NCBI GenBank assembly: GCA_964597895.1 | Contig: CAZQZS010000001.1 | Span: 9,238 to 73,237, forward strand | DNA from: an uncultured Candidatus Saccharibacteria bacterium | Lineage (GTDB): Bacteria; Patescibacteriota; Doudnabacteria; UBA920 | Length of the DNA: 64,000 nucleotides | Direction: 5' to 3' | Part shown: positions 3,589 through 51,459 of the stretch, piece after piece | How positions within the stretch are numbered: the stretch's first letter is position 1 | Layout of the letters: each line of letters begins with the position of its first letter | Translations under genes and position numbers: made by a program | Notes under the pieces: model-generated | What the model was told of the DNA's origin: nothing | Databases searched by the model: none | Seen by the model: the letters and a program-made list of their open reading frames with translations, nothing else

Positions 3589-3652
3589 AAGTTTATTGTT
3601 ATTTTTTTGGCATTTATTTTTGTTTGAACACCATATGAAAAGATGAAGGTGT

Positions 3653-3724: not shown

Positions 3725-3726
3725 CT

Positions 3727-3755: not shown

Positions 3756-3794
3756 GTACACGACAAGCAAGTTCTGAAGCCGTCGAGGCACGAA

Positions 3795-3824
3795 AAAACC
3801 ACCCGTAAGGGTGGTTTTGATTTG
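3795..3824 (+). terminator. rho-independent terminator (CCACCC-GTAA-GGGTGG + TTTTGATTT)
   Basis: Perfect 6-bp GC stem with a GNRA loop and a U-tract, preceded by an A6 run. Confidence 0.65.
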
Positions 3825-3878
3825 ACACAGAAAAATATTATAGTAGGATATAGATACCCCCCATAGGGGGGTTATATC

Positions 3879-4145: not shown

Positions 4146-4146
4146 T

Positions 4147-8177: not shown

Positions 8178-8190
8178 GTCCTTTTAATTT
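8161..8190. terminator. bidirectional terminator A6GGACTC-agt-GAGTCCTTTT
   Basis: Hairpin with flanking A- and T-runs between convergent genes. Confidence 0.55.
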
Positions 8191-8753: not shown

Positions 8754-8819
8754 CGTTTTATTACTTATATTTTTCTAAATATCTTTATCATTTCCGTTCA
8801 GGCGAGAATCAATTTTTGA

Positions 8820-8847
8820 TTCTAGGATTTAGAATTTTTAATTGCAA
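8820..8847 (-). promoter_or_regulatory. putative efp promoter TTGCAA-N17-TAGAAT (minus strand)
   Basis: Read on the minus strand directly downstream of structured element B and ~65 nt upstream of the efp ATG. Confidence 0.45.
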
Positions 8848-8851
8848 ATTT

Positions 8852-8952
8852 GCCGCCCACTTTTTCGGGGGCGCTCTCATCCGCCTTACGCCCGCCTAAC
8901 AGCGGGCTATGGCGGACTGGCGCTAGCTTACCCCCTCTTAAGTGGGTGGCGG
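8852..8952 (-). ncRNA. copy B of a ~100-nt multi-helix structured hairpin element (structured RNA or REP-like hairpin); strand of function uncertain
   Basis: Outer helix CCGCCCACTT/AAGTGGGTGG encloses nested helices GGGGG/CCCCC, GCGC/GCGC, TCCGCC/GGCGGA, CCCGC/GCGGG and loop TGTTAG. It is the reverse complement of copy A (49897-49993), with compensatory changes in three helices and identical bulges. It lies 15 nt after the rpsR stop and 4 nt before the efp promoter. Confidence 0.45.
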
Positions 8953-8967: not shown

Positions 8968-9213
8968 TTAAGCGGCCACAAAAGGCACGAGTGCCATGTG
9001 GCGAGCCCGCTTTAGCGCGATGGTAATCATGCGCTGGTGCTTAGGGCAAGACCCAGTGCGGTTGCGGGATAAAATTTTAGAGTGTGGAGACATGAAGCGG
9101 CGCAAAGTTTGGGTGTCTTTGTAGTCTACAGTGCTAACTTTATTAGCACAGAAATAGCAGACTTTTTTGACTGGTGCCGCGTCACGGTCTCGATTGTTCT
9201 TATTGTAAGCCAT
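8968..9213 (-). CDS. rpsR: 30S ribosomal protein S18
   Basis: KKVCYFC...VDYKDTQTLRRF...IALKRARHMALVP is the canonical S18 sequence. Confidence 0.9.
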   Translation of the reverse strand: MAYNKNNRDRDAAPVKKVCYFCANKVSTVDYKDTQTLRRFMSPHSKILSRNRTGSCPKHQRMITIALKRARHMALVPFVAA

Positions 9214-11792: not shown

Positions 11793-12004
11793 AACTTGAA
11801 TATTGTGCCTGAAAACGGTCGTTTTGTCCATCGTTTAAGTCTGCTACAATAATAGTGTCCGAATTCTACTTAGGAGGTAATGAATGAGAGATCATTGTCC
11901 CTACGCACGTCGATTCCGCACGAGATTTTATACCACGCCGGTACGCAGTTTCGTACCACCATGGATGCGGCGATATAAACGACGTTGTTGATCTTTATCT
12001 TACC

Positions 12005-12035
12005 GAGCCCTGCCAATCGCGGGGCTTTTCTTTTC
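12005..12035 (+). terminator. hairpin GCCCTGC-caat-GCGGGGC + TTTTCTTTTC
   Basis: Stem-loop plus U-tract directly after the 32-codon unannotated ORF (11880-11978). Confidence 0.5.
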
Positions 12036-12050
12036 ACTTATTGACATTGG

Positions 12051-12069
12051 CCCGAAAATTGAGTATAGT
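12051..12069 (+). promoter_or_regulatory. sigma70 promoter TTGACA-N17-TATAGT
   Basis: 11/12 match to consensus; -35 at 12051-12056, -10 at 12064-12069. Drives the ORF at 12147. Confidence 0.6.
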
Positions 12070-12146
12070 GTTAATTACCGCCTAGCAGTTTTTGGTGTAT
12101 CGAATAGGGGATGTGTCCAAAATTCAAAATAGGAGAAATATAGTGT

Positions 12147-12446
12147 ATGCAAACTGCTTCTGCCCAAGTCGTGAGCCTGATGGAAAGTGGTACGATCGGA
12201 TTGGCGAGCCTTAGCCCGTCGCTCAGAGAGTCTTTAAAATCGTCGCTTAAAAAAGATTGTTGTCCCGACATGAAAGACAGCGACGTCGAGAAAGTGTTTC
12301 GGAATATCCTCGGTGCAACCACGTTCGACGTTAAGTCGCACGGCATGCCCGATGACGGTTACGTCACTTTCGAGAGCGTGATCCCCGGTCACAAAAAACT
12401 TTTCGTCACTTCCCGCATGCGACTGCAGCAGTACATTCGCGCATGA
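12147..12446 (+). CDS. hypothetical protein (99 aa)
   Basis: AGGAGA RBS, own promoter and strong terminator. Local GC content (~52%) is higher than surrounding DNA. No recognisable motif. Confidence 0.55.
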   Translation: MQTASAQVVSLMESGTIGLASLSPSLRESLKSSLKKDCCPDMKDSDVEKVFRNILGATTFDVKSHGMPDDGYVTFESVIPGHKKLFVTSRMRLQQYIRA

Positions 12447-12451
12447 ACCCC

Positions 12452-12490
12452 GCGGCCCAGCTTTTACAAGCTTGGGCCGCTTTCTTTTTC
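12452..12490 (+). terminator. rho-independent terminator GCGGCCCAGCTT-ttac-AAGCTTGGGCCGC + TTTCTTTTT
   Basis: 12-bp perfect stem plus U-tract. Confidence 0.7.
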
Positions 12491-12532
12491 CACATTGCCA
12501 TTTGATATAATAAAAGAAAGTCTGGAGGGACT

Positions 12533-12877
12533 ATGGCACAAATCAGTTCAGCACCTTTTATCTATATCAAAGAGGTTTGGTCTGAGCATCAGGCCGAATT
12601 CTATGAGCGCGAAGCCGAATGGCTGTTAGCTAATCTTGGAGGGCGTCTGCGCAAGCAAACTTTTCGGAGTAGCGAAGATTTTGCTCTAAGTATTCTTGAA
12701 TACCTCTTTGCTACAAACTGGTTTCGATCGGTCCGGCGCGGGCGCTGCCAGGCAATTATCTTGGAACGCAAGCGCGGGCAAATGTTTTTCGTTATTCGTA
12801 TGCAGGATATTCCTGCGATTAGAACTTGGGCAAATCGTCGGCATCAAAGTCGGCGACACCTGAGGAGAAGCGTGTGA
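12533..12877 (+). CDS. hypothetical basic protein (114 aa)
   Basis: GGAGGG RBS and a TGaTATAAT extended -10 at 12503-12512 upstream. Arg-rich C-terminus. Confidence 0.5.
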   Translation: MAQISSAPFIYIKEVWSEHQAEFYEREAEWLLANLGGRLRKQTFRSSEDFALSILEYLFATNWFRSVRRGRCQAIILERKRGQMFFVIRMQDIPAIRTWANRRHQSRRHLRRSV

Positions 12878-17800: not shown

Positions 17801-19684
17801 TTAAACCTCGATTACCACTGGAAGAATCATTGGACGACGCTGTGTCTTTTGGAACAGGTATTCGCCGATGTCATCGCGGATTTTTTGGCGGAGGTCAGCC
17901 CAGTTAGGCTCACCAGTTTTATTGCCATTGCCTTCAATGATCTTTCGAATTTCGTGTTTTACTTCACGAACGAGTTCGTCGTTGTTTTTCATATACACGA
18001 AACCGCGAGAGAGAATTTCTGGTTGGTTAATCATTTTGTTGGTGTGACGGTCTAAGGTTGCAATAATCACGAACATACCGTCTTGAGCCATAGCTTGGCG
18101 GTCGCGAATTACAACTTCACCAACATCGCCAATACCGAGACCGTCAACGAACACGTAGCCAGAAGGCACTTTTTCGTTTAAGACTTTAGCTTCGCCACGC
18201 TGATTGATTTCCATAATTGAACCGTTTTCAAGTAGGAAACAATTCTCTTCGGGGATACCAATGCTTTGTGCAAGCTTAGCGTGAGCTGCAAGCATGTGTA
18301 GTTCGCCATGAATCGGCACGAAGAATTTTGGCTTTACCAGCTGCATCATCAGTTTGAGCTCTTCTTGCTGGCCGTGACCACCAGTGTGAATGTCCAAAAT
18401 TTTGTTGTAAATAACGTTGGCGCCGAGGCGGGTGAGGTTATCTAGAACAGTGACGATTGAGCGTTCGTTGCCAGGGATAGTGGAAGCAGAGATTACTACT
18501 GTGTCACCCTTCTTGATTTTTACGAAACGATGCTCGCCGCGTGACATGCGTGCCAATTGTGAAGATTCTTCACCTTGACCGCCAGTGGAGAGAACCAAAA
18601 TTTGGTTGTCGGGATACCGGCTGGCTTGCTCGGATTTGATAATAATCTTTGGCTGGATTTTTATGTAACCCATGCTGACAGCAGTTTCTAAGGTAGAAAC
18701 AATGCTGCGGCCAGTTACAATAACTTTACGATTGTACTTTGCGGCTAAATCAAATACCTGTTGAATACGGGCGATTAAGCTGGAGAAGCTTGTAAAGACA
18801 ATACGGCCTTTAGCATCTTGAAAAATGCGGTCAATAGTACGTCCGATTTCGCGTTCAGACTGAGAATAACCAGGCTTAATAGCGTTAGTTGAATCGCTCA
18901 TCAAAGCGAGCACGCCTTGGCTGCCAAAGCTGGCAATTTTGTGGAATTCAGTTTGTACTTCGTTTACAGGAGTGTGGTCAAATTTCCAGTCACCAGTGTG
19001 AATCACCTGCCCAATTGGAGTGTTGATAGACAAACCGACTGAATCCGGAATATTATGGTTTACCGCAAAGAAGCGTACCTGGAAAGCGCCGGCAGGAACT
19101 GTGTCATCCAAACCAACAACGTTAAGTTTGGCACGGCCAACCAGATTAAACTCCTCAAGGCGCTTCTTAATCATGCTGGCAGACAACTTCATGGTATAGA
19201 TTGGAGGATCACCCAGCTTGGCTAGCAAGTAGGGAATAGCCCCAATGTGGTCCATGTGTCCGTGCGTTACGAATAAGCCACGAATATTCTTTTTCTTATC
19301 TTCCAAATATTTGGTTTCCGGAATGATGTAGTCAATACCAGGGGTGGTGTCGTCAGGAAAGGCAAATCCAGCGTCAACGATAATGATATCGTCGCCGAAT
19401 TCATAGGCCATCATATTGGCTCCGACTTCCTCCAAACCGCCAAGTGGAATCACGCGCAAGGTATTGCGCGATACGGTATAAACACTGTTGGAACCTGAAG
19501 CAACGCGTTCTAAAGGTTTGATTTTGCTTTCAGTTGGCATAATTGGCAAGCCGCGACTGCGGCCACCACCAGTACGCCCGCTGCGAGCTGGAGTTGCAGA
19601 CTTGCGCGCCGCTGGGCGGCTGGTTGGTCTGCTGGGTTGGGCTTTGCGGCTTGAGGCCTGTGAGCTAGTTGTTTTCTTAATCAT
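17801..19684 (-). CDS. rnj: ribonuclease J (beta-CASP metallo-beta-lactamase RNase) with a ~55-aa Arg/Pro/Ser-rich N-terminal extension
   Basis: HGHMDHIGA (HxHxDH) zinc motif, beta-CASP region, and C-terminal domain. Total length 627 aa. Confidence 0.9.
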   Translation of the reverse strand: MIKKTTSSQASSRKAQPSRPTSRPAARKSATPARSGRTGGGRSRGLPIMPTESKIKPLERVASGSNSVYTVSRNTLRVIPLGGLEEVGANMMAYEFGDDIIIVDAGFAFPDDTTPGIDYIIPETKYLEDKKKNIRGLFVTHGHMDHIGAIPYLLAKLGDPPIYTMKLSASMIKKRLEEFNLVGRAKLNVVGLDDTVPAGAFQVRFFAVNHNIPDSVGLSINTPIGQVIHTGDWKFDHTPVNEVQTEFHKIASFGSQGVLALMSDSTNAIKPGYSQSEREIGRTIDRIFQDAKGRIVFTSFSSLIARIQQVFDLAAKYNRKVIVTGRSIVSTLETAVSMGYIKIQPKIIIKSEQASRYPDNQILVLSTGGQGEESSQLARMSRGEHRFVKIKKGDTVVISASTIPGNERSIVTVLDNLTRLGANVIYNKILDIHTGGHGQQEELKLMMQLVKPKFFVPIHGELHMLAAHAKLAQSIGIPEENCFLLENGSIMEINQRGEAKVLNEKVPSGYVFVDGLGIGDVGEVVIRDRQAMAQDGMFVIIATLDRHTNKMINQPEILSRGFVYMKNNDELVREVKHEIRKIIEGNGNKTGEPNWADLRQKIRDDIGEYLFQKTQRRPMILPVVIEV

Positions 19685-20169
19685 AGTTTGAATTCAAAGA
19701 CGAAAGCCTGCGCATTGTTCTGCATTAGACTGCCCTAAAAAAGTTTGTTGAGCAGTAGCATTAAGTACAGAATTTTACACATCCGGAATGCGCCTAGTAG
19801 TTCGAGGCGCTCAGTAAAAACTTTCGTCTTATAGTTAATTTTTGTGTTATGTCAGAACTTTTTTGAACATATTTTCTTAAGATAGAATATATTCCGGAAA
19901 AGTTCAGTAGAACCCAAAGATTTTCTAATTGGCAAAAAACAAATGTCCCAATGAAAAATAGGGGATTCTGGAATCAGTGAAGTGGCTTCCGGGGCCGCCT
20001 TCGCTAATTGATTGCTGCAAAATTTTGCAGGCAATTAACACATGAATGATTACTTCAGAGAAATAACAACTCATCTGTTAATTGAATATTTGAACAAAAT
20101 CATTATATCAAGCAGGTGCTAGTTTGTCAATCAATTTTAACGAAACTTTGCTTATTTATGCTGGTTTTA

Positions 20170-20188
20170 TTTGGTGCCGAGGGAGGGA
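20170..20188. repeat. 19-bp direct repeat TTTGGTGCCGAGGGAGGGA duplicating the 3' end (acceptor/T-stem) of tRNA-Leu 195 bp away
   Basis: Identical to 20384-20402. Followed by a degenerate T-arm-like sequence (GGAGAACTCC) that cannot form a canonical T-loop. Confidence 0.5.
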
Positions 20189-20385
20189 GTTCTCCTCATC
20201 CGTGCTCATGGCGGAGGACTTGACCACCTCACGCTGTGCACAATTCCACTTTGGCAAGCTCAGTGTCATTTCGCACGACGCTGCGGCGGCCCCCGACGCT
20301 TCCAACCTGCCACTGGCAGCTTGGAAGCTGTTTTCAAGTCCCTCAACATAAAACAACAGCCAACCATGAATGGTTAGCTGTTGTT

Positions 20386-20472
20386 TGGTGCCGAGGGAGG
20401 GACTTGAACCCTCACGACCTTGCGATCATACGCACCTGAAGCGTATGTGTCTGCCAATTCCACCACCCCGGC
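20386..20472 (-). tRNA. tRNA-Leu(CAG): tRNA-Leu (anticodon CAG), class II with a long variable arm
   Basis: Reverse complement GCCGGGGTGGTGGAATTGGCAGACACATACGC-TTCAGGT-GCGTATGATCGCAAGGTCGTGAGGGTTCAAGTCCCTCCCTCGGCACCA. Anticodon loop TTCAGGT; encoded CCA. Confidence 0.85.
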
Positions 20473-20495
20473 CTGCGCCCCATTATACCGATTAA

Positions 20496-22142
20496 TTACC
20501 CACTCTTCAAGACGCGCTTAGTGTCTAAGTACCAGTCGCGCAGATTAAAATAGCGGACAGTTTCATCGTGCATTTTAGTTACTGTAAAGCCTTGGATTTT
20601 ATCGTTAAGCGCATATGTATATACCGACTGCACCAAGAAGATCGCCGGCAAATCTTGTTTCATGATGTTATGGAGTTCTAGATATTTTGCATCGCGTTCT
20701 TCCTTCTCCGTTGTGGCGCGTGCTTCGCTGATTAACTTATCCACGGTTTGATTGGAATAGCTGGATAAGTTTAATCCAGGCGCTTTGGTCTGACTGGAAT
20801 GCCAGAATACGAATGGGTCCGGATCGGCACCCAGCTTGTGCGCAAACAAGAGCATGTCGTAGTCGCGGGTCTGAATGTTCTGTTCGTTTAGTTCTCGCGT
20901 TGGTTTTGTAACTAATTCAATTTCCACTCCGAGTTCGCGCCATTGTTCTTTGAGCATTTCTGCAGCGCGCCTGTTTACCCAATTTTCGTTAGTCACCAGC
21001 TTAAACTTTAATTGCTGGTTGCCCTTTTGTCTGACAGTGCCATTCTCTGGGTACAACCAGCCAGCTTGTTCAAGCAAATTCTTGGCAGCCTCAAAATCCT
21101 GAGCTGCATCGTGTTCAGGAAGATTTGCAACCTGCTGGGAAAGTATCGGACTTTCAATTAACAGTCCTTGACCTTCAAATACTTCAGATAAAATTGCTTC
21201 TTTGTTGCTAGCTAAGTTGAGCGCCTGTCTGACCTTTGATTCACCCAAGCTCTTTACTGTGGTGTTAAAAAATAGCGCCTGATATTGGGGAAGCGGAATC
21301 TGGTGAACATTTAGGTTCTTAGTAGATTTTTCTATACTGACGCGGTTTTCAAACTGGTTATATCCAAAACCGTCAATCTGGTTGCCATGCAAGGCTTTTA
21401 GCAAACTCCCAGCGTCTTCAAAGAAAATAATTTCTAGATTGTCCAAGTAGCTTGGACGAGAGTGAAAATTTGCAAACGACTCCAGCAGGATACTTTGCAC
21501 GCCGCCGCTGGTCAACTGCTCAACTTGTTTAATTTTGTATGGCCCGTTACCGATTGGTTGAATGTTGCCTTGCGACAAAACAAATTCTTGAGGAGGTACT
21601 TTATTCCATATAACCTCGCTGATGATCGGTAAGGTTAGGTTGTTTAAGAATGGACCAGACGCAGCTTTCAGGTTGAACACAACCGTGCGTTCATCCGCGG
21701 CCTCTACGGTGGTAGATAGCCAGTCAGCGCGTCTCGGGCTGTTGTATTCGGGATTCTGTAAAGTCTTGATTGTAAACACAACGTCATTAGCAGTTACGGC
21801 AACGCCATTATGCCACTGGGCTGGCCTGAGTTTTACGGTGTAGGTCTTCTTGTCTTCTGAAATCTCAGGAAAATTTTCTGCTAAATCAGGAACAACATTA
21901 CCATTTTCATCATAACGGTATAAGCCAGCATAGATTAAGTTAACCAACGCACGGTCGGTACTGCTGGTCGCGTAGAGTGGATTAATGAATCTTGGTTCGC
22001 CAATAATTCCTTCTCTATAGGTTCCGCCTTCGCCGGGGACTACTGCAGTGTAGGCTTGCAGGAAATTTTTGGCTGCAAACACCGAACTTATCAATGCAAC
22101 AATTACCAGGATCAGCCAAAACCGCTTTTCGGTTTTTCCCAT
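20496..22142 (-). CDS. ABC transporter substrate-binding protein, family 5 (oligopeptide/dipeptide/nickel-type), lipid- or signal-anchored
   Basis: N-terminal MGKTEKRFWLILVIVALISSVFAA signal/anchor. ~550-aa SBP_bac_5-like body. ATG at 22142 chosen. Confidence 0.7.
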   Translation of the reverse strand: MGKTEKRFWLILVIVALISSVFAAKNFLQAYTAVVPGEGGTYREGIIGEPRFINPLYATSSTDRALVNLIYAGLYRYDENGNVVPDLAENFPEISEDKKTYTVKLRPAQWHNGVAVTANDVVFTIKTLQNPEYNSPRRADWLSTTVEAADERTVVFNLKAASGPFLNNLTLPIISEVIWNKVPPQEFVLSQGNIQPIGNGPYKIKQVEQLTSGGVQSILLESFANFHSRPSYLDNLEIIFFEDAGSLLKALHGNQIDGFGYNQFENRVSIEKSTKNLNVHQIPLPQYQALFFNTTVKSLGESKVRQALNLASNKEAILSEVFEGQGLLIESPILSQQVANLPEHDAAQDFEAAKNLLEQAGWLYPENGTVRQKGNQQLKFKLVTNENWVNRRAAEMLKEQWRELGVEIELVTKPTRELNEQNIQTRDYDMLLFAHKLGADPDPFVFWHSSQTKAPGLNLSSYSNQTVDKLISEARATTEKEERDAKYLELHNIMKQDLPAIFLVQSVYTYALNDKIQGFTVTKMHDETVRYFNLRDWYLDTKRVLKSG

Positions 22143-33879: not shown

Positions 33880-35766
33880 ATGTCAAAAATTATTGGAATC
33901 GACTTAGGAACAAGTAACAGTGCTGCTAGCGCGATTGAAGGCGGCAAGCCTGTGATTATTCCAGCCGCTGAAGGAACTTCTGTAGGCGGTAAAGCTTTTC
34001 CGTCTTACGTGGCGTTCACTAAAGACGGCCAGCTGTTGGTAGGTGAGCCAGCTCGCCGCCAGGCAGTAACGAATCCAGAGAACACTGTCTTTGAAGCCAA
34101 GCGAAAGATGGGAACTTCTTTCCGTTATAACATCAACGGCAAAGAATATTCTCCGGAACAGATTAGCGCGTTCATCTTACAGAAGATTAAGCGTGACGCC
34201 GAAGCCTATCTTGGCGACAAAGTAGAGAAAGCAGTTATCACTGTGCCTGCGTATTTTGATGATGCTCAGCGCCAAGCTACTAAGCAAGCTGGTGAAATCG
34301 CAGGTCTAGAGGTAGTCCGTGTGATCAACGAGCCAACTGCAGCAGCCTTCGCGTACGGCATTGATAAGAGCGGCGCGCAGGATCAAAAGATTTTAGTGTT
34401 CGACCTCGGCGGCGGTACTTTGGACGTGACCATTATGGAATTCTCAGAAACCGAAGAAGACGGCAAACAGCAAGCTACTTTTGAAGTTAAAGCCACTTCC
34501 GGTGACACTGCACTCGGCGGAAAGGATATGGACCAGGCTTTGATTGATTACATTTTGGCTGAATTCAAGTCTCAGAGCGGCATTGATATTAGCTCCGACA
34601 AGATGGCTATGAATCGTGTGCGTGAAGCTGCTGAAAAAGCTAAGATTGAACTTTCTACAACACTAGAAACCGACATTATTTTGCCATTCATTGCGCAGAA
34701 TGAATCTGGTTCACAAAACTTAGAAATGAAGCTCACCCGCGCCAAGCTGGAAGATTTGGTAAAACCGATTGTCTCCCGCATGCGCGCGCCAGTTGAACAA
34801 GCAATTAAGGATGCTGGTTTAACACCTCAAGCAATCGATAAGATTATTTTGATTGGCGGTCCAACCCGTATGCCAGTTGTTCAAAAGTTTGTGGAAGATT
34901 ATGTTGGCAAGCAAGTTGAACGAGGCGTTGACCCAATGGAGGCTGTGGCAAAGGGCGCAGCTGTTCAGGCAGGCGTGCTTGGCGGCGACGTGCAGGGCAA
35001 AGAAATTTTGCTCCTCGACGTAACCCCTTTGACTCTTGGTTTAGAGACTTTGGGTGGCGTGCGCACTCCGCTAATCGATCGCAACACTACAATCCCAACT
35101 TCAAAATCCCAAGTCTTTTCTACTGCGGCAGACAACCAAACTTCTGTACAGGTTCATGTTTTGCAAGGGGAGCGCGAGTTCGCAGCTGACAACAAATCCC
35201 TGGGAACCTTTAATTTGGACGGTATTCCGCCAGCACCACGCGGCGTCCCACAAGTGGAAGTAACTTTTGACATTGATGCTAATGGTATTCTCAAAGTTAC
35301 TGCCAAGGATAAAGCCAGTGGCAAGGATGCGCACATTACCATTCAGGGTTCAACCAACCTTTCTAAAGAAGATGTGGAAAGAATGAAGCAAGAAGCTGAA
35401 GCGCACGCTTCAGAAGACCGCAAGCGCCGCGAAACCGTAGACGCGCGTAACGAAGCCGATACTTTGATTGCTGTTTCCGAGAAAACTTTAACTGACGCTG
35501 GTGATAAAGCCAATGCCGAAGATAAAGCCGCTGTAGAAACCGCCATTGCCGAGCTTAAAGAAATTAAAGATAAAGATGATGTAGATGCAATCAAGGCCAA
35601 GATTCAAGCTCTCTCTACAGCTATTCAAAAAGTAGGAGCCGCGATGTATGAAAAACAACCTGGCGATGTGGGTACAGTTGATCCAACCGAAAAAGAAATC
35701 CCAAGCGATGACAAACCAGTTGATGCTGAGTTCAAAGAAGTCCCGAAAGACGAACAGTCTAAGTAA
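33880..35766 (+). CDS. dnaK: molecular chaperone DnaK (Hsp70)
   Basis: [18 protein letters not shown] and IDANGIL signatures across full-length Hsp70 with an acidic C-terminal tail. Confidence 0.95.
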
Positions 35767-35775
35767 AATGAAAAG

Positions 35776-35806
35776 CAGGGCACGGGATAGTGCCCTGCTT
35801 GAGGGT
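35776..35806 (+). terminator. hairpin AGCAGGGCAC-gggata-GTGCCCTGCT after dnaK (U-tract poor)
   Basis: 10-bp GC-rich stem 8 nt after the dnaK stop. Confidence 0.45.
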
Positions 35807-35908
35807 ATTCCGCTCTATGGTAGGACCTGTGATTCATTTGAATTTCTGTTTATCAGTTTAAGTTGAGCGGCGGTTGGGTCAGAGAGATGTTTTGTAGAAT
35901 TTCAGTTT

Positions 35909-36088
35909 CTACGAACCTAAGGGCCCCTTTCCCTTGTTTAGGATCACCTCCACAGGGGTGTGCCTGGCGCTTGGGAGTAGCGAGATGCGAGGTTTTTGCG
36001 GGGAGAGTATGGCCGACTGATTGAATCGTCTGGCCAATCGCATCTTTTCTTCCTTAGTTAGAGTCATTTGACCCATGACTTTTATCAT
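35909..36088 (-). CDS. possible small basic protein (59 aa), not in the ORF track
   Basis: Minus-strand ATG at 36088 is preceded by a perfect AGGAGG at 11-nt spacing and a TTTACT-N16-TAAGAT promoter-like sequence. Product: MIKVMGQMTLTKEEKMRLARRFNQSAILSPQKPRISLLPSARHTPVEVILNKGKGPLGS. Confidence 0.3.
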   Translation of the reverse strand: MIKVMGQMTLTKEEKMRLARRFNQSAILSPQKPRISLLPSARHTPVEVILNKGKGPLGS

Positions 36089-36157
36089 AATATTGGAGAC
36101 CTCCTAAGTTTTTTGAGAAGCACCTTTATCTTATCTGAAATTATTAAAAAGTAAAAT

Positions 36158-36454
36158 ATGGCCCAAAATAAAGCCCCTGGACAGCCAGTTCAGATTAAAG
36201 CCAGCGATGAAAAATTAGCTGGTAAGTATGCTAACATGATGCAAGTGTCACATACTCGCGAAGAGTTCGTTTTGGATTTTGTGAATTTAATTCCGCCTTC
36301 TGGACAATTGGTGTCCCGGGTGTTAATTAGTCCGGCTCATGCCAAGCGCATTGTGGCTGCTCTAACTGACAACATTAAGAAGTATGAAACTCAGTTTCAA
36401 AAGATTGCTGAAGAAGGAGCCGATAAGCCAAATTTTGGTTTCAAAACCGAATAA
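36158..36454 (+). CDS. DUF3467-family protein (98 aa)
   Basis: ...YANMMQVSHTREEFVLDFVNLIPPSGQLVSRVLISPAHAKRIVAALTDNIKKYETQF matches the conserved DUF3467 pattern. Confidence 0.7.
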   Translation: MAQNKAPGQPVQIKASDEKLAGKYANMMQVSHTREEFVLDFVNLIPPSGQLVSRVLISPAHAKRIVAALTDNIKKYETQFQKIAEEGADKPNFGFKTE

Positions 36455-36458
36455 TCAA

Positions 36459-36481
36459 ACAGCCCTGAATTTCAGGGCTGT
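36459..36481 (+). terminator. hairpin CAGCCCTG-aattt-CAGGGCTG (no U-tract)
   Basis: Perfect 8-bp stem after the DUF3467 gene stop. Confidence 0.4.
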
Positions 36482-36674
36482 AGCTAAAACAAAACGGAAG
36501 CAAGGTAGCTGAACTGTTGTCGAAACAAGTGGGGCAGGCATCTTTAGGTAAGCTAAATGGGGTTTATGTGTGTCTGTGCGGGGCTAGCTAGCTTCCATCC
36601 CTCTTACTAATTTCTATAATTATAGTTTAGCATTCAATAGATCATTTTCAAGAAGGATCAGTGGAAAACTTTAC

Positions 36675-37826
36675 ATGACAGGCAATTATTACGACATTTT
36701 AGGTGTTAGCAAGACAGCCAGCGCTGATGAAATCAAAAAGGCATACCGGAAGTTAGCTCATAAATACCATCCGGACAAAGGTGAGGGTAATGACGCAAAG
36801 TTTAAGGAAGTCAATGAAGCCTATCAGGTTTTATCGAACGCCGAAAAGCGTGGTCAATACGATCAGTATGGTCAAACTTTTGAGCAGGCCCAGCGCAATG
36901 GTCAAGGTTTTGGTGGCGCCGGCGGTCCTTTTGGAGCCGGTGGTTTTGATTTTTCTGGTTTTGGCGGCCAAGGAGGAGTAGAGTTTGATTTGGGCGATAT
37001 CTTTGGCGATATCTTTGGTTCGCAGCGCAGCCGGCAAGCGCGCCGAGAGCGCGGCATTGATTTAGAAATGCCGTTAACAATTTCATTTGAAGAAGCCGTG
37101 TTCGGAGTGGAAAAGAGTATTACTTTGGAAAAGAAGGATGCTTGTCCAACTTGCGAGGGCAGCGGTGCCAAGGCGGGAACAAAGGTGATTACCTGTCCGG
37201 TTTGTCATGGCCAAGGGCAGATTCGCACCCAGCGCCGGACTATTTTGGGCAACATTGCTACCTCCACGACTTGTGATCGCTGTGATGGTTCTGGGAAGAT
37301 TCCCGAAGTGCCGTGCGAGAAGTGCAGCGGTGCTGGCATATTGCGTCAGGAGAAAACTATTGAGGTAAAGATCCCTGCCGGCATAGATAATGGCCAGCGC
37401 GTGGCAATTCGCGGAGAAGGGGAAGTTGGTTACCGCGGTTCCAAATCAGGGGATCTGTATTTGGCTATTAAGGTTAAGCCGCACAAGGACTTTCAAAGAC
37501 AAGGTTTTAATTTGCTCAAAGATTTGCCTCTGAGCTTTACGCAGGCAGCGCTTGGGGCAAAGATTAATGTAGACACCTTAGACGGCAAGATAGAACTGAA
37601 AATTCCGGCTGGTACCCAGCCTGGCAAAGTATTCCGGGTGGCTGGCAAAGGTGTGCCAGTAATCAATTCAGCCAAACGCGGAGACTTGTACATTACCGCC
37701 CGCGTTGTTGTGCCAAACAAGCTCACAAAAGAAGAAACTGAGCTTATTAAAAAGCTCGCTGAATTAAGCGGCGAGAGCGTAGAGGTTAATAAAAGTTTTT
37801 GGGACAATATTAAAGATAGTTTTTAA
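36675..37826 (+). CDS. dnaJ: molecular chaperone DnaJ
   Basis: J-domain with HPD (KYHPDKG), a G/F-rich region, four CxxCxGxG zinc-finger repeats, and a C-terminal substrate-binding domain. Confidence 0.92.
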
Positions 37827-40731: not shown

Positions 40732-41402
40732 TGTCTAGCTATTATCGTTTAATCAAACAACTTCGCTATGGATCGCAGTTTGCGATTTTGCTGGCGGTAT
40801 TTGTATTCTCTTTGGCAGCTTACTCCTATTTTGTGGGCACGCCTTATTTTGACGTTTTTGAGCAATGGGCTCAGCAAAATTACTGGAACTTAGTAATCTT
40901 TTTAGTGGTGCTCAAAATTATAGGGATTATCTGGCCGCCGTTGCCTGGAGTAGTTCCTCTGATCGGTGCTATCCCAGTGATTGGCTGGTTTCCAGCCTTT
41001 TTGATTGATACCATTGGTTATATGATTGGTTCGGTCATCGCATATTATTTGGCGAATCATTATGGCACTGATGTAATTAGAAAATTATTCGGACAGGCTG
41101 GGGTGGCAGAGGTGGAGAAGTTTAAAATCAGGCCGGAGCGTGAATTAGAGGCTATTGTGTTAATGAAGATTTTTGGCGGCGGTATCGGCGAGTTTATCAG
41201 TTATGCGGCAGGGCTAACCAAAGTGAAGCTAAAGAATTTTATTCTTGGTAGTATCATTGCCAGCGTGGTTGTAGGCATCCCGTTGTTTTACTATTTTAAT
41301 TTTGCCTTATCGCAAAATAATTTATTGTTTTCGTTAGTTCCTTTAGGGGTGGGCGTTTTGTTATTTTACATTATGCGCCGCCGTTACTTTGATTGGCAAT
41401 AA
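40731..41402 (+). CDS. DedA/TVP38-TMEM64 (VTT-domain) family membrane protein
   Basis: PPLPGVVPLIGAIPVIGWFPAFLIDTIGYMIGSVIAYYLANHYG is typical of the VTT re-entrant loop region. Start overlaps the ndh stop (TAATG). Confidence 0.55.
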   Translation: MSSYYRLIKQLRYGSQFAILLAVFVFSLAAYSYFVGTPYFDVFEQWAQQNYWNLVIFLVVLKIIGIIWPPLPGVVPLIGAIPVIGWFPAFLIDTIGYMIGSVIAYYLANHYGTDVIRKLFGQAGVAEVEKFKIRPERELEAIVLMKIFGGGIGEFISYAAGLTKVKLKNFILGSIIASVVVGIPLFYYFNFALSQNNLLFSLVPLGVGVLLFYIMRRRYFDWQ

Positions 41403-41438
41403 AAAACCGCACTTCGATTAACTCAGTGCGGTTTTTTC
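41401..41438. terminator. bidirectional terminator A6CCGCACT-tcgattaactc-AGTGCGGT6
   Basis: Shared by the VTT gene and convergent topA; the topA stop lies in the loop. Confidence 0.7.
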
Positions 41439-43736
41439 TTCATCGGTTTGAGATTTTCTTGTTGCCTTCTTGGCAACTTTTTTCTTTGCTGTTTTGCGTG
41501 CTGGTTTCTTGTCACCCTTCGGAGTTGGGGGATTGTCTTTCCAATTCTGGAATAATTCCATGAGTTCCGCTTCTGATTCAGGCTTCTTGTTCATGATCAA
41601 AGTGCAGTCTGGCCAGCGGGTGCAAGCGTAGAATGGTTTGCCGCGACCGCGGCCTTTCTTTTCCACAATATCGCCAGGCTTGTCTTTGCGGTCCTCTGTT
41701 TCCAGACATAGCGGACACTTAAAGCCAGTTTTATTCCAGATTTTAGAAATGCCTTTGCAGTTCGGATAATCACTGCACCCAAGGAAGAATCCAAACCGGC
41801 CGCGTTTTACGTTCATTGGCTTGCCGCAAATCGGACATTTTTCGTCTTTGGTCTTTTCTTCTAGGGCCTTAATCTGCGCGGCTTCTTCTGGCATTGGCAG
41901 AGTTACTTTACTGCCTTCTTCCGGACAGGCCAAGAATTTACCCATGCGTCCATACTTGATAAGCATTGGTTTGCTGCAGTGCGGGCATGGTGTTGTAGAA
42001 ACTTCTACCTGCTTTTCTACTTCTTTTTCTTTTTCTATAAGGTGCTTTTTGAAAGGAGTATAGAAGTGTTCAATGACAGGAACCCATTTGAGCTTGCCTT
42101 CAGCGATGTCATCAAGCTCGCCTTCGATTTGGGAAGTAAAGTTAATATCTACGATTTCTGGGAAATGCTCTACCAGCATGTCGGTGACAAGATTGCCTTC
42201 ATCTGTTGGGGCATACTTCTTGTCTTCTTTGGTGACATAACCTCGTTCTTGAATCGTAGTCAGAGTTGGCGCATAAGTTGAAGGACGTCCAATACCATGC
42301 GCTTCTAACGCTTTTACTAGTGTCGCATCTGTGTAGCGTGGAGGCGGTTCGGTAAAGTGTTGAATTGGGGACAGCTCATGAAGTTTTAGGGTTTCGCCGA
42401 CTTTCAGCTCTGGCAAAGCGCCTTCTACTTCGTCTTCACTCTTTTCGTCTGTGCCTTCGGTGTAAGCTCGGACAAATCCATCAAATTTAATCACTTGGCC
42501 ATTAGCACGGAAGGTGTAATCTTTAGCAGTGATATCAACCGCGGTCTGGTCAAAGATGGCTTGCTGCATTTGGGAGGCGATAGTGCGTTTCCAGATTAAA
42601 TCATAAAGCCGTCCGGCATTGCGATCTAGCTTCAACTTCATGTCTTGAGGTAGTGCAGCAAGATTGGTTGGGCGAATCGCTTCGTGTGCTTCCTGTGCAC
42701 CTTTGCTCTTGTTAGAAAAATGACGCGCTTCTTTGAGGCCATAGTTTTTGCCGAACTCCTGTTCAATTACTTGCTGCGCTTGAGCTAAGGCAGATTGCGC
42801 TAAATTCAAGCTGTCGGTTCTCATGTAGGTAATGTGACCGTGTTCGTACAAACTTTGCGCCACAGCCATGGTTTGCTTGGCACTAAAGCCTAATTTTCTT
42901 GCGGCTTCCTGCTGCAGGGTTGAGGTTGTGAATGGGGGAGAAGGATTACGTTTTACTTCTTTTTTGGTTATCTCAGCAACTTTGTATTCAGCACCATCTA
43001 AATCAGAGGTAATCTGTTTTGCATCAGCTTCATTGTTAATTCCCATCTTGCCAACGGCCTTGTCTTTGATTTTAGTGAGCTTGGAATTAAATTGCAGTTT
43101 ATCCTGAAGTTTGGAAAGCAGGGCTTCAATGCTCCAGTATTCTTCGGCTTTGAAAGCGTTAATTTCGCGCTCGCGCTCTACGATTAAGCGTACTGCTACA
43201 GACTGCACGCGTCCGGCGGACAAGCCGTACCGGATTTTGCGCCACAAGAATGGCGACAGTTCGTAGCCTACTAATCGGTCCAGCACGCGGCGCGCTTGCT
43301 GAGCATCCACTAAATTTAGATCAATGTCGCGTGGGTTCTCTAACGCTTTATCAATAGCAGTCTTCGTGATTTCATGAAAAACGATGCGCTTAATCCGCTT
43401 ATCTTCTTTCCCGTCAACAATTTGTTTTTCGTTGCCCAAGCCTAAAGCTTGCACTAAGTGCCAGGAAATAGCCTCTCCTTCGCGGTCTTCATCAGTCGCC
43501 AGTATAATAGAGGAAGCCGATTTGGCCATCTTTTTGAGTTTGGCGATAACTTCTTTGGCTTTTGGGGGAATGGTGTAGTTTGGCTCAAAGTCGTTCTCAA
43601 CATCAATAGAGAGCTTAGATTTTGGCAGATCTCGGACATGGCCAAAACTGGCTTCTACTTCGTAGCCAGAGCCTAAAAATTTTGAAATTGTTTTCGCCTT
43701 GGTTGGCGACTCTACTATAATTAACTGTTTAGACAT
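41418..43736 (-). CDS. topA: DNA topoisomerase I with C-terminal zinc-ribbon repeats and a Lys-rich tail
   Basis: TOPRIM N-terminus (LIIVESPTKAKTI), the active-site Tyr region, and multiple C4 zinc ribbons (CPHCSKPM..., CPICGKPM..., CPLC...). Confidence 0.92.
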   Translation of the reverse strand: MSKQLIIVESPTKAKTISKFLGSGYEVEASFGHVRDLPKSKLSIDVENDFEPNYTIPPKAKEVIAKLKKMAKSASSIILATDEDREGEAISWHLVQALGLGNEKQIVDGKEDKRIKRIVFHEITKTAIDKALENPRDIDLNLVDAQQARRVLDRLVGYELSPFLWRKIRYGLSAGRVQSVAVRLIVEREREINAFKAEEYWSIEALLSKLQDKLQFNSKLTKIKDKAVGKMGINNEADAKQITSDLDGAEYKVAEITKKEVKRNPSPPFTTSTLQQEAARKLGFSAKQTMAVAQSLYEHGHITYMRTDSLNLAQSALAQAQQVIEQEFGKNYGLKEARHFSNKSKGAQEAHEAIRPTNLAALPQDMKLKLDRNAGRLYDLIWKRTIASQMQQAIFDQTAVDITAKDYTFRANGQVIKFDGFVRAYTEGTDEKSEDEVEGALPELKVGETLKLHELSPIQHFTEPPPRYTDATLVKALEAHGIGRPSTYAPTLTTIQERGYVTKEDKKYAPTDEGNLVTDMLVEHFPEIVDINFTSQIEGELDDIAEGKLKWVPVIEHFYTPFKKHLIEKEKEVEKQVEVSTTPCPHCSKPMLIKYGRMGKFLACPEEGSKVTLPMPEEAAQIKALEEKTKDEKCPICGKPMNVKRGRFGFFLGCSDYPNCKGISKIWNKTGFKCPLCLETEDRKDKPGDIVEKKGRGRGKPFYACTRWPDCTLIMNKKPESEAELMELFQNWKDNPPTPKGDKKPARKTAKKKVAKKATRKSQTDEEKTALS

Positions 43737-46505: not shown

Positions 46506-46748
46506 TCCAGCACGAAAAGTTTTGATGATTTGTCTTCAGCACCCTACTTGTAAGTCGCGATAGCGGGGATCATCCCTCCTATTTCTCCGCCAGTAGCGGT
46601 TAAGTAGAGACTTCGCAGCGATTGCTGTGTGCCTCTCACTTGCAGGTGGGGTAGTGAAGATAAAAACTATCAAACCATCTTCTACTGTTTGTTCATGAGG
46701 CTTCGCCGCTTTGCGGCTGCAGATTCATTCTCAAACAGTAGCAGATGG

Positions 46749-46917
46749 TTTTTATCTTCTGGGGAGTGAGGGTTTTGGAATACAGTTTCGGAATAGCTTC
46801 CAGGTATCACTGTGCCTTTTATCTTCTGGGAAATATGGGTTTTGAAAATGCGGATGCAGATTGGTTCGTAAACAAAAGTAGGATTTTTATCTTCTGAGAG
46901 GATGGGAAAACTAAAAC
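46749..46917. repeat. three ~33-bp direct repeats (period ~68 bp) TTTTATCTTCTG[G/A]G...GGG[T/A]TTT[G/C][G/A]AA, plus an inverted partial copy GAAGATAAAAA at 46650-46662
   Basis: R1 46749-46780, R2 46816-46848, R3 46885-46917. First 12 nt identical, remainder degenerate. The repeats fall in different reading frames. Confidence 0.5.
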
Positions 46918-46940
46918 CGGCCTGGGCCGGTTTTAGTTTT
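46913..46940. terminator. bidirectional terminator AAAACCGGCC-tg-GGCCGGTTTT
   Basis: 10-bp perfect stem with A4/T4 flanks. Overlaps the pth stop. Confidence 0.7.
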
Positions 46941-48520: not shown

Positions 48521-48560
48521 TTAAAACCGCTTTGCGACAAGCTTGAGGCGGTTTTTAGTT
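48521..48560. terminator. terminator-like hairpin AAAACCGC...GCGGTTTTT with a large loop
   Basis: Between convergent genes. The stem ends are perfect but the loop is 17 nt. Confidence 0.5.
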
Positions 48561-49881
48561 AGGCTTTTTTCGTGAGGTGAATTTTAATGGGTGTTCCCCA
48601 GAAGCCAAGTTTTTGTATTATTTGCTTTTCTAGATATCGGCGATATTGCGTGGAGATTGCTGCTGGGTGGTTGACGATCAATTCAAACATTGGAGCGAAG
48701 TTGCCAATTTGGTTTAAGCCGTAAACCTTTGGGGCTTTCTGATCCAGCATGCGGCGTGGTGGGTTTTTTTCTAAGGTGTATGCCAAGAGTCTATCCAAAT
48801 CTTCTTGGGTAATAACCTTAGCCCGAGCATCGTAAATTGGCTTGAGTGCCTTTAAGGCTTCTGTTAGGCCATCGCCAGTTTTCGCAGACACAAAGAATAC
48901 TGGAGCAAACCACAGAAAAGGGAAGTGCTGAGAGACATAATCCTGAAGCTGTTTTTCGTCGCCGTCAAACTGATCCATTTTATTCACGACAATCACCACG
49001 CCGCGGCCCAAGTCTAGGATTTCTCCGGCAATTGCCTGGTCTTGCTTGGTAATAGGCTCCACTGCGTCAATGACGAACATCACTACCTCGCTTTTGCGGA
49101 TTGATTTAAAAGTTTGGAAAACAGAATAGACATCAGGTTGGGCTTGGCGGTAAGACTTCTTTTTTAAACCAGCTGTATCTATCAGGGTAAAGTCAGTGCC
49201 TTCAAAGTTTATCTCCACATCAATTGCAGTGCGTGTGGTTCCAGGGATATCCGAAACTACGACGCGTTCTTCGCCCAAGATTTTGTTGACTAAACTGGAT
49301 TTGCCAACGTTAGGTTTGCCTACAATGGCTACAGGAATCCCAACTGGTTTTTCAGGCTTAGGGATTTTTAATTTTTTGAGCTGTGCGGCAACCTCATCTA
49401 GTAATTCGCCGATGCCGCGGCCGGTTTGCGCCGAAACAGGGAAGATAAGTTTAATGCCTAACCTTTTCCATTCTTCACCGAATTCGCGCAAAGCTTTTGG
49501 CGAGTCAAGCTTGTTGACTGCGAGCACCACAGGCTTAGAGGTTTTGCGAAATTTAATTAAGGCTTTTCTGTCTGTGGTGTTGCTATCGGTTTTGCTGTCT
49601 GCAACGAATAGAATTAAATCAGCTTCGTTTAAAGCTTGATCAATTTGGGTTTCCAGTTCGGCCTCCAACTCTTGTTTGTGTCCATAGGTTAGCCCGGCTG
49701 TATCTACCAATGTAAAATCCACTCCATTCCAGGAAGTGTCTATGTACTGACGGTCGCGCGTAGTGCCTGCTACATCAGAAGTAACAGCAGCGCGCGTGCC
49801 AGCGATCTTATTTAGCAGGGTGGATTTTCCAACATTTGGTTCACCTACTATGGCAACTATAGGTAATCTATTATTTTTCAT
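48559..49881 (-). CDS. der: ribosome-biogenesis GTPase Der (EngA) with two G domains and a KH-like domain
   Basis: Two P-loops (GEPNVGKSTLLN and GKPNVGKSSLVN), two DTAG motifs, and a C-terminal KH-like domain. Confidence 0.92.
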   Translation of the reverse strand: MKNNRLPIVAIVGEPNVGKSTLLNKIAGTRAAVTSDVAGTTRDRQYIDTSWNGVDFTLVDTAGLTYGHKQELEAELETQIDQALNEADLILFVADSKTDSNTTDRKALIKFRKTSKPVVLAVNKLDSPKALREFGEEWKRLGIKLIFPVSAQTGRGIGELLDEVAAQLKKLKIPKPEKPVGIPVAIVGKPNVGKSSLVNKILGEERVVVSDIPGTTRTAIDVEINFEGTDFTLIDTAGLKKKSYRQAQPDVYSVFQTFKSIRKSEVVMFVIDAVEPITKQDQAIAGEILDLGRGVVIVVNKMDQFDGDEKQLQDYVSQHFPFLWFAPVFFVSAKTGDGLTEALKALKPIYDARAKVITQEDLDRLLAYTLEKNPPRRMLDQKAPKVYGLNQIGNFAPMFELIVNHPAAISTQYRRYLEKQIIQKLGFWGTPIKIHLTKKA

Positions 49882-49896
49882 AGAAGTTTATTATCG

Positions 49897-49993
49897 CTAC
49901 CCACTTTAGAGGGAGTAAGCTAGCGCCAGCCGGCCATAGCTCGCTGTCAGGCGAGCGAAAGGCCGGTGAGAGCGCTCCCGGAGAAGTGGGTGG
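49897..49993 (+). ncRNA. copy A of the ~97-nt multi-helix structured hairpin element (structured RNA or REP-like hairpin)
   Basis: P1 CTACCCACTT/AAGTGGGTGG. Nested helices GGGA/TCCC, GCGC/GCGC, (G)CCGGCC/GGCCGG(T), GCTCGC/GCGAGC. Hexaloop TGTCAG. Conserved bulge GTAAGCTA and internal loops CAG/TGAGA and ATA/CGAAA. Two G-T pairs favour the plus sense. Sits between the LCP gene stop and the der ATG. Confidence 0.45.
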
Positions 49994-50016
49994 CTTAACT
50001 GAATTCTGAAATATAT

Positions 50017-51459
50017 TTAATTAGAATCTCCCAAAATAACTATCACATCAACTTTGGTTGGGTCAATTTTAATTCCAGGTGGAGCGAGCGAAACCTCGCT
50101 GGCGTTCAACCGGTTTTTGATTAATTCAATTGTGGCAGCTTTTTGGTTTACAGGATAGACCACATTCTGCTGCAAGGCTTTGCCAGTGTAAATCACTTTA
50201 TAAACTGTTAAGCCATTGGATGTTAATTCTTGTTCTGCCTGTTTGTAAAGTTGTTGTGAAACTGAGCTGTCAGCTAACCAGACAACGGCTTTTTCGGCCA
50301 GGATAGCACCGCTGTCAAAGCTTTCTTTAAAGAAGGAGATGATGTCTTCGGTTCTTTTTCCTGCGCAAGTTGTTAAAACAAACGCGCCGCTTTCTTCCAA
50401 AATTTTAGGACAGATTAGGCCCGTGGCAGGGTCCAGGCTCAGGCTGACCACTTGTTCTGAACCAAAGTCTTTGGTTAGCGTGTAAAGCCGGATCAGTTCA
50501 CCAGGGGTGAGGTTAGTATGGAAATGATCGCCGATAATTGTGAATAGCTCGTTAATCTTACCGGCATCGCCGACAATATTTAATGACACCAGTTTGGTTT
50601 TTGCTGCTTGGATAATCTTTTGTTGCCGCGCGCTACGAGCAAAATCGCTACCTTCAGCTCCAGCAGCATGGCGTGAGCGTGCAAAAATGAGGGCCCGTTC
50701 GCCATTCATGGTTTCCATACCTTCCGTGAAGGTTACGGGAGGTAAGTATCCTTGCGAATCATTCGGGAAAGTATAATCCGTGAAGGTTCTGTCAATTTGC
50801 ACATCAACGCCCCCAAGCAAATTGATCGTCTTTTCAAATCCGTCAAAGTCAATAACTGCAAAGTAAGGGATTTCCAAACCAGACATTTTTTCTACAACAG
50901 CTATAGATGCTTCACCAGCTTTGTTCCAGTCATTGGTGTCGCTGTAAGTTTGTGCAAAGACTGCGTTAATGCGACCTTGGCCAAATTCCTTTGTGTTCAC
51001 TAAATAGTCGCGAGGTATGGAAATCAGAGTCGCTTTGTTTTCATTTGGCTTGAGCTGCGCCACCATGATGGTGTCAGAAAGATATGGTCCGTCGTGTCCA
51101 GGACCGCCGATGCCGAGGAGGAGCACATTAACCTGACCTTCGTTTTCACCAATTAGCTTGCTGCCACTGCCTAGGCTGAGCAGATCAGAGATGCGGCTGG
51201 TCAGGCTTTGACTATTGCCTACGAAGATTTTATCGGCCAAGCTAGTGGATCGCATCAGCACAAATCCGCCGAGGCCGAGCGCCATTAAAATCATCACAGC
51301 TATGATGATTTTTAGGATGCGGCGGCTTTTGCGTTTTGGCGGCTGAGGCTCAGATGATTGGGTTGGGAGGCGGTCGTCGCTCCAATTGCCAAATCTTACT
51401 GGGCCAGATGGGCTGCTGGAAACGCTTTGGCTGTTGATTCTAGGGGAACGTACTTCCAT
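50017..51459 (-). CDS. LytR-CpsA-Psr (LCP) family cell-envelope phosphotransferase with a disordered N-terminus, TM anchor and LytR_C-like C-terminal domain
   Basis: LCP core (...VNVLLLGIGGPGHDGPYLSDTIMVAQL...SIPRD) after a single TM helix. Confidence 0.8.
   Translation of the reverse strand: MEVRSPRINSQSVSSSPSGPVRFGNWSDDRLPTQSSEPQPPKRKSRRILKIIIAVMILMALGLGGFVLMRSTSLADKIFVGNSQSLTSRISDLLSLGSGSKLIGENEGQVNVLLLGIGGPGHDGPYLSDTIMVAQLKPNENKATLISIPRDYLVNTKEFGQGRINAVFAQTYSDTNDWNKAGEASIAVVEKMSGLEIPYFAVIDFDGFEKTINLLGGVDVQIDRTFTDYTFPNDSQGYLPPVTFTEGMETMNGERALIFARSRHAAGAEGSDFARSARQQKIIQAAKTKLVSLNIVGDAGKINELFTIIGDHFHTNLTPGELIRLYTLTKDFGSEQVVSLSLDPATGLICPKILEESGAFVLTTCAGKRTEDIISFFKESFDSGAILAEKAVVWLADSSVSQQLYKQAEQELTSNGLTVYKVIYTGKALQQNVVYPVNQKAATIELIKNRLNASEVSLAPPGIKIDPTKVDVIVILGDSN

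Follow-up and report, generated by a model that had tools for sequence, protein, structure and literature searches.

A family of intergenic hairpins with a fixed asymmetric core in a narrow group of Saccharibacteria

Candidate Phyla Radiation (CPR) genomes are tiny and streamlined, and to our knowledge almost nothing is known of their non-coding or mobile repertoire. The 64-kb stretch of Saccharibacteria DNA analysed here (the window) carries, in two separate intergenic slots, two copies of an elaborate hairpin, which raises the question of whether such a structure is an RNA gene, a regulatory element of its neighbours or a DNA repeat that has been copied from place to place. On the strand on which the two copies align, hereafter the canonical strand, they match end to end over 99 nt without a gap, as the initial annotation had proposed from coordinates that were off by 1-2 nt. 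The parts of the element are the following (L-numbers denote loci in other genomes).

49896-49994, + strand (canonical): copy B, whole element, 99 nt; covariance model 121.7 bits
49896-49906, + strand: copy B, P1 5' arm, 11 bp with 49984-49994; sequence varies between copies, pairing kept
49907-49929, + strand: copy B, core 5' half (J1/2 UAGA, P2, bulge, P3, J3/4 CAG); bulge, P3 and J3/4 invariant in six copies
49911-49914, + strand: copy B, P2 GGGA, within the core 5' half
49915-49922, + strand: copy B, bulge GUAAGCUA, within the core 5' half
49923-49926, + strand: copy B, P3 GCGC, 5' strand, within the core 5' half
49930-49966, + strand: copy B, variable apex of type 1, from the fold; a different hairpin (type 2) in L001, L003 and L004
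49930-49935 with 49961-49966, + strand: copy B, P4, in the apex, followed by the loop AUA/GAAA
49939-49944 with 49951-49956, + strand: copy B, P5, in the apex
49945-49950, + strand: copy B, hexaloop UGUCAG, in the apex
49967-49983, + strand: copy B, core 3' half (UGAGA, GCGC 49972-49975, UCCC 49976-49979, GGAG), from the alignment of copies
49984-49994, + strand: copy B, P1 3' arm; 6 of 11 P1 pairs changed on both sides
8852-8950, - strand (canonical): copy A, whole element, 99 nt; covariance model 122.4 bits
8917-8939, - strand: copy A, core 5' half (AAGA, GGGG, GUAAGCUA, GCGC, CAG), from the alignment with copy B
8863-8879, - strand: copy A, core 3' half (UGAGA, GCGC, CCCC, GAAA), from the alignment with copy B

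Copies A and B differ at 15 positions, 10 of the 62 paired and five of the 37 unpaired nucleotides. Four pairs have changed on both sides and still pair (P5 C-G/U-A, P4 C-G/G-C, P4 U-A/C-G and P2 G-C/A-U) and two have changed on one side (C-G/U.G and A.C/A-U). The compensatory pattern is thus real, and the three helices and the accompanying loops are all as first described. The further claim that the loops are invariant stands for the core (the GUAAGCUA bulge, GCGC/GCGC and CAG/GAGA) but fails for the other loops, the change rate being similar in unpaired (13.5%) and paired (16%) nucleotides. Chance does not account for the resemblance: covariance-model scores of the hairpin copies are 122 bits (E ~1e-30), and a search with the 16-mer core gave four matches at three or fewer mismatches (two of them copies A and B) against 0.3 expected. 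The element has a G+C content of 0.65 as opposed to 0.44 for the genome and window.

As RNA, both copies fold into a single long hairpin of about -62 kcal/mol, with fold z-scores of -5.9 to -7.1 against dinucleotide shuffles, and with DNA parameters the canonical strand has the model drawn in the initial annotation as its fold of lowest energy. From the outside inwards, the hairpin consists of P1 (11 bp), a 4x4 internal loop, P2 (4 bp), the 8-nt bulge, P3 (GCGC/GCGC), a CAG/UGAGA loop, P4 (6 bp), an AUA/GNAA loop, P5 (6 bp) and the hexaloop. The ends of the element read GCYRYCCACUU...AAGUGGRYRGC, and across the family it is an imperfect palindrome of 99-103 nt.

Covariation was assessed on a model-guided alignment of seven sequences, an alignment that is itself fitted to the model. 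Standard pairs make up 96.2% of pair cells, compared with 38-43% when the 3' partners are slid by 1-3 columns, and 17 of the 31 pairs have changed on both sides. These values were not attained in any of 500 shuffles. By helix, both-sided changes affect 6 of 11 pairs in P1, 2 of 4 in P2, 4 of 6 in P4 and 5 of 6 in P5, the counts for P4 and P5 being inflated because individual columns of the type-2 apex probably have no true homologues in type 1. Clean covariation is found in P1, in P2 and in the three type-1 sequences by themselves, whereas P3 is invariant and covariation is therefore silent for or against it. The covariation on which the idea of a selected structure was first based thus persists after the addition of five sequences, and we conclude that the fold is real and under selection.

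The six close copies do not vary evenly along their length: no column is variable among the 19 of the bulge, P3 and 5' CAG and one is among the nine of 3' NGAGA-GCGC, compared with 11 of 22 in P1 and 32 of 41 in the apex. What is conserved is thus an asymmetric core of 23 nt (the GUAAGCUA bulge, the GCGC helix and the CAG/NGAGA loop; with the adjoining P2 it reads GGGR-GUAAGCUA-GCGC-CAG / NGAGA-GCGC-YCCC), around which outer stem and apex vary freely. Three observations bear on whether the element acts as RNA or as DNA. The canonical strand has six G.U cells against two A.C cells (three against one without L036), it folds slightly better in four of five copies under DNA parameters, and four of five loci carry the element in sense orientation and one in antisense, all copies being intergenic. 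None of these is significant alone and each also fits folded single-stranded DNA; the G.U bias in particular suits an RNA role as well as a DNA one. The RNA hairpin is very stable in either orientation (about -51 to -63 kcal/mol).

How widely the element occurs was determined with an exact-motif scan of one genome per species over 185,579 species, which found it in only two genomes, UBA926 (one copy, L001) and the Saccharibacteria MAG binchicken_co242_277 (three copies, L002, L003 and L004). With at least two copies in the window's genome, the family ranges from one to three copies per genome. Among 14 matches to an 18-mer in JGI metagenomes, one is real (L020) and the other 13 are unrelated chance matches, and the 13 viral-contig matches to a 15-mer are all unrelated sequences. 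The initial annotation had looked to further copies or homologs in related genomes as a check, and such copies are indeed present in related Saccharibacteria (L001, L020, L002, L003, L004 and, in reduced form, L036). When 421 kb of sequence from about 15 genomes of Saccharibacteria was searched with a covariance model, on which the reverse strand scores 95 bits lower, nothing beyond the listed copies was recovered, so the family is narrow and low in copy number; half-element HMMs together with the covariance model over 421-620 kb of Saccharibacteria loci likewise gave no further or degenerate copies beyond the seven. By blastn the element matches no plasmid or phage and none of 5,426 E. coli genomes, and with the viral-contig matches unrelated we rejected a phage or plasmid origin.

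Nor does the element belong to a recognised RNA class, in keeping with what had been claimed by eye: with E allowed up to 10, Rfam searches of the surroundings of copy B and of L003 gave best scores of 15-17 bits against thresholds of 43-71, and at gathering thresholds Rfam 15 reports three tRNAs as its only hits in the whole window. Other identities were rejected on inspection, SRP RNA because the element has no GNRA tetraloop or AGCA/GGAA loops, is multi-copy and has a replaceable apex, the hammerhead because GAAA lies in a two-way rather than a three-way junction, twister and hairpin ribozymes because neither matches, and the K-turn because the 4x4 J1/2 loop keeps the register of P1 and CAG/NGAGA has the wrong GA polarity. 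We found no described hairpin repeat or ncRNA of relevance from Saccharibacteria or Patescibacteria in the literature. The element is a new family, confined to a narrow Saccharibacteria (TM7) group.

The same Rfam search covered three ORF-free gaps of 700-900 nt in the window (19684-20496, 35766-36675 and 11831-12533). The first holds one tRNA and several inverted repeats, and besides that tRNA the three gaps have no match at the gathering threshold.

The genes and signals around the two window copies, with genes assigned by ORF calls and Pfam, are as follows.

50017-51459, - strand: LytR-CpsA-Psr (LCP) family gene, upstream of copy B
49995-50016, strand not assigned: AT-rich spacer from the LCP stop to copy B; like 49882-49895, without counterpart in the 3-12-nt junction of relatives
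48559-49881, - strand: der (EngA GTPase), downstream of copy B
8968-9213, - strand: rpsR (ribosomal protein S18), upstream of copy A
8819-8848, - strand: promoter-like TTGCAA-17-TAGAAT for efp, directly after copy A (consensus match only)
8190-8753, - strand: efp, downstream of copy A

Copy B lies 22 nt past the LCP stop and 14 nt ahead of the der ATG, and copy A 17 nt past the rpsR stop; the promoter-like sequence after copy A is conserved in L001 and L004. Since the - strand encodes all four neighbours, copy A runs with local transcription (sense) and copy B against it (antisense), and both the intergenic slots and the opposite orientations relative to transcription given by the initial annotation are correct. 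Its suggestion of a terminator fared less well. The hairpin resembles Rho-independent terminators in being G+C-rich and in lying right after stop codons, and the reduced L036 relative has a U-tract; yet neither copy A nor copy B has a U-tract or other terminator-like site (3' flanks UUAACUGAA and AAAUUUGCA), while ordinary short-stem terminators with a U-tract are used elsewhere in the window (for example 46907-46940, 41398-41440 and 1148-1178). The hairpin moreover exceeds the genome's own terminators three- to fourfold in length, has conserved unpaired nucleotides and is antisense in one copy. We therefore rejected a canonical terminator.

The LCP-der junction is informative about how copy B came to be there. 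In L056, L057 and L058, whose Der proteins are 90%, 82% and 78% identical to that of the window, the spacer measures 7, 3 and 12 nt, compared with 135 nt in the window, where it is made up of the hairpin and the 22 and 14 nt of AT-rich sequence, and the exact-motif scan found no copy at LCP-der in the closest relative's genome. By parsimony, copy B is a recent antisense insertion. Presence and absence are thus polymorphic across relatives at two orthologous sites, LCP-der and rpsR-efp. The flanks of five loci do not align, so homology between paralogs is limited to the hairpin. As to the other two loci, the L002 copy lies 27 nt downstream of tRNA-Leu and upstream of ftsH, and the L003 copy is flanked by a hypothetical gene and one with a nucleotidyltransferase domain. 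Copy B is also where two independent Logan assemblies break off, which is behaviour that repeats tend to cause.

These properties bear on a reading in which the copies are a small family of genes for trans-acting or protein-sequestering sRNAs, with the bulge and internal loop as binding module and the apex as variable decoration. An invariant core within covarying stems, the 95-bit deficit of the reverse strand, a G+C content well above that of the genome and the absence from Rfam would all suit such genes. A comparison of the flanks, however, revealed no promoter or terminator common to the copies, and transcription of copy B would have to start from a promoter within der. Moreover, most of the Saccharibacteria examined (421 kb, about 15 genomes) lack the element, and its apex can be replaced wholesale. 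We consider sRNA genes distinctly improbable. The other possibility raised at the outset, a REP/BIME-like DNA hairpin, fits better than an RNA gene, since copy B is inserted, homology between paralogs ends at the hairpin and no promoter or terminator is shared.

We accordingly prefer to read the element as a dispersed, non-autonomous hairpin of the REPIN/ERIC/MITE kind, peculiar to this lineage and transcribed together with the adjacent genes, a proposal to which we give even chances. The insertion evidence and the narrow, low-copy distribution favour a dispersed repeat over a new functional RNA class. Several findings count against a dispersed repeat. One to three copies per genome is very low for selfish DNA. 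The flanks of the five loci contain no direct repeat that could be a target-site duplication. P1 is an 11-bp inverted repeat, but its sequence is variable, which is unusual for ends recognised by a transposase. Finally, no transposase, RAYT or recombinase was seen in the 64-kb window or in the 8-kb loci around the other copies. As for a parent element, the P1 terminus occurs nowhere else in the window, in which no insertion sequence with matching ends was seen.

In several relatives an island upstream of ychF, absent from the window, encodes HTH_17, a large serine recombinase and sometimes a phage-type integrase (L037:4383-6208, L040:3796-7436, L041:1884-3709 and L051:2787-6417). Some relatives have, less than 10 kb from efp, genes for an RVT_1 reverse transcriptase and bAvd, as is typical of diversity-generating retroelements (L044:16992-18339, L041:12646-12873 and L052:20212-20564).

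The rpsR-efp site raises a different possibility. Orthologous spacers were retrieved via Efp homologs, and the element is retained there in the window, in L004, in L001/L020 and in GCA_034680565 (L036), where a reduced but significant relative (42.6 bits, E ~4e-8) is followed by the U-tract UAUUUUUG. Several other Saccharibacteria have unrelated hairpins or almost no spacer at this site. Among the former, the spacers of three distant Saccharibacteria (L044:9883-10003, L051:9868-10003 and L052:9860-10003) contain long two-tier hairpins of similar architecture, which share ...GAAAAC.G...GUUUUCUUA... and are unrelated in sequence to the 99-nt element. That many Saccharibacteria have some long hairpin at rpsR-efp hints at a host function at the site. 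The element might accordingly be a cis-acting RNA at the 3' ends of transcription units, serving as stabiliser, RNase III-type processing site or unconventional terminator or insulator, which would have originated as the 3' hairpin of rpsF-ssb-rpsR and occasionally been duplicated elsewhere. Such a role would account for the four of five loci in sense orientation, placed just past a stop codon or tRNA-Leu and ahead of the next gene or promoter, for the retention at rpsR-efp, with its U-tract in L036, and for the unrelated hairpins at the same site; G.U pairs favouring the sense strand and an RNase III gene in one element-bearing genome agree with it. It does less well with copy B, which is antisense and inside a normally tight LCP-der pair, and with the missing U-tracts of both window copies in a genome that has canonical terminators. 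Furthermore, the rpsR-efp spacers of L040 and L049 are only 12-23 nt long, so the hairpin is not required there, and the invariant asymmetric core is left unexplained. We regard a cis-acting RNA as possible, though somewhat unlikely.

In another locus, L045, whose Efp is 94% identical, the spacers of rpsF-ssb-rpsR-efp (2905-4990) are all about 170-200 nt long, and those of rpsF-ssb and rpsR-efp hold structured inserts that share TTGGTCGARAGC...GCTATCGRCYAA. The repeat finder did not group these inserts, and they do not belong to the hairpin family; they may be a different lineage-specific intergenic element.

The rpsR-efp copies also record how the apex has changed. Type 1 (P4, loop and P5) is present in copies A and B and in L002, type 2 (CGGC and an 11-bp stem) in L001, L003, L004 and L020, and L036 has a third, shorter form; types 1 and 2 are unrelated, and a single MAG contains both. 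The window carries type 1 at the orthologous rpsR-efp site, while both L001 and L004, the latter being the window's closest relative (Efp 99% and YchF 94% identical), carry type 2 on an otherwise nearly identical basal part, indicating that the apex has been exchanged. L004 and L020 share 95-99% nucleotide identity over about 400 nt centred on the element; elsewhere in rpsF-ssb-rpsR and in most of efp, their identity is about 75%. The tract occupies alignment columns ~1950-2400 and comprises the 3' end of rpsR, the spacer and the 5' part of efp. Between the window and L004, in turn, the 3' half of efp is 97-100% identical and the spacer about 68%. Judged from these identity profiles, the mosaics point to probable recent homologous exchange between lineages, and the high-identity tract around the element means that part of its cross-species conservation reflects recent exchange and not purifying selection. 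The case for constraint on the core is based on the paralogs. Natural transformation is a route compatible with the ComEC and DprA genes that lie nearby in these genomes.

Two further structures lie near dprA. The pth-dprA spacer (window 46528-46662, - strand) contains about 135 nt that are conserved in L057 and L058 and have a multi-helix fold, in which 7 of 45 predicted pairs have changed on both sides among only three sequences; it has no Rfam match at E up to 1 and may, as a candidate, represent an unnamed ncRNA or a leader for dprA, upstream of which it lies. Window 46656-46759 forms a second, unrelated long hairpin of about 100 nt, with a z-score of -8.2 for the - strand, that L057 and L058 lack in this spacer. 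The outer stem draws on the local sequence UUUUUAUCUUC, and three direct copies of CAGAAGAUAAAA precede the hairpin (46895, 46826 and 46761, - strand).

How does the element compare with repeats that are known from other bacteria? ERIC/IRU, BOX and Correia-type elements and MITEs are imperfect palindromes of about 100-150 bp that lie in transcribed intergenic regions. They can face either way, are polymorphic for insertion among related genomes and form folded RNA when transcribed with their neighbours. The present element is likewise an intergenic imperfect palindrome found in either orientation, with insertion polymorphism at LCP-der, but it has no similarity to E. coli genomes, plasmids or phages and, unlike MITEs, has no target-site duplication, no conserved terminal inverted repeat sequence and no parent IS in the window. 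REPINs, hairpin doublets with conserved parts in which compensatory changes are common (PMC3116915), are alike in being extragenic, non-autonomous hairpins of about 100 nt that occur in either orientation, form subfamilies within a genome and combine conserved blocks with parts conserved only in pairing (PMC3116915). In REPINs, however, the conserved blocks are two terminal inverted REPs, whereas here the termini vary (11 of 22 positions in P1) and the conserved core is internal and asymmetric, with an 8-nt bulge, CAG facing NGAGA and halves that are not inverted copies of each other. REPINs also reach tens to hundreds of copies, compared with one to three per genome here, and are mobilised by RAYT transposases, none of which was seen in the window or the 8-kb loci.

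Another architectural parallel is the integron attC site, in which structure is conserved over sequence and which has an internal loop, extrahelical bases that mark one strand and a variable terminal hairpin. The element could by analogy be a recombination site that is used as folded single-stranded DNA, of the attC or Xer-on-hairpin type, and read by a tyrosine recombinase through its structure and extrahelical bases. The match extends to an outer stem in which only the inner pairs (CUU/AAG) are conserved, an internal loop, a helix with a conserved bulge on one strand and the variable terminal hairpin. But it lacks the R''/R' consensus (RYYYAAC...GTTRRRY), there is no cassette array, integrase or other integron context nearby, and it sits among genes of core housekeeping function (rpsR, efp, der, ftsH and tRNA-Leu), so that we think a recombination site of this type highly improbable. 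REPIN layout, target-site duplication, U-tract, attC consensus and Rfam all being unmatched, the element fits no named family.

As a dispersed repeat, the element would be a palindrome of 99-103 nt, of which copies, each a self-contained unit, have been placed between genes within a narrow clade of Saccharibacteria. A single strand in folded form, most likely the canonical one, would be recognised through the asymmetric core by a protein encoded elsewhere, which might be a single-strand transposase or recombinase acting on DNA or a factor that binds or processes RNA, and recognition by this protein would be what selection preserves in fold and core. Once inserted, the element would be co-transcribed with its neighbours and yield a very stable RNA hairpin in either orientation, which, by analogy with REP, ERIC and BOX elements, may act as an intercistronic barrier or protect 3' ends. 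We also entertain, as an unlikely idea, that the core is the recognition module of an undescribed CPR hairpin-handling system, either for structure-reading mobilisation of single-stranded DNA or in the form of a protein-binding RNA class that spreads as a mobile module.

The element thus provides a cleanly delimited family of hairpins that covary strongly and keep an asymmetric core unchanged, one of which was recently inserted between two essential genes that are normally tightly linked. It accounts for assembly breaks in these MAGs and offers a handle on how small repeats spread in transposase-poor genomes, and on whether they do so by way of natural competence and recombination. Binding of the core by a specific protein, if it occurs, would point to a new mobilisation or RNA-handling activity.
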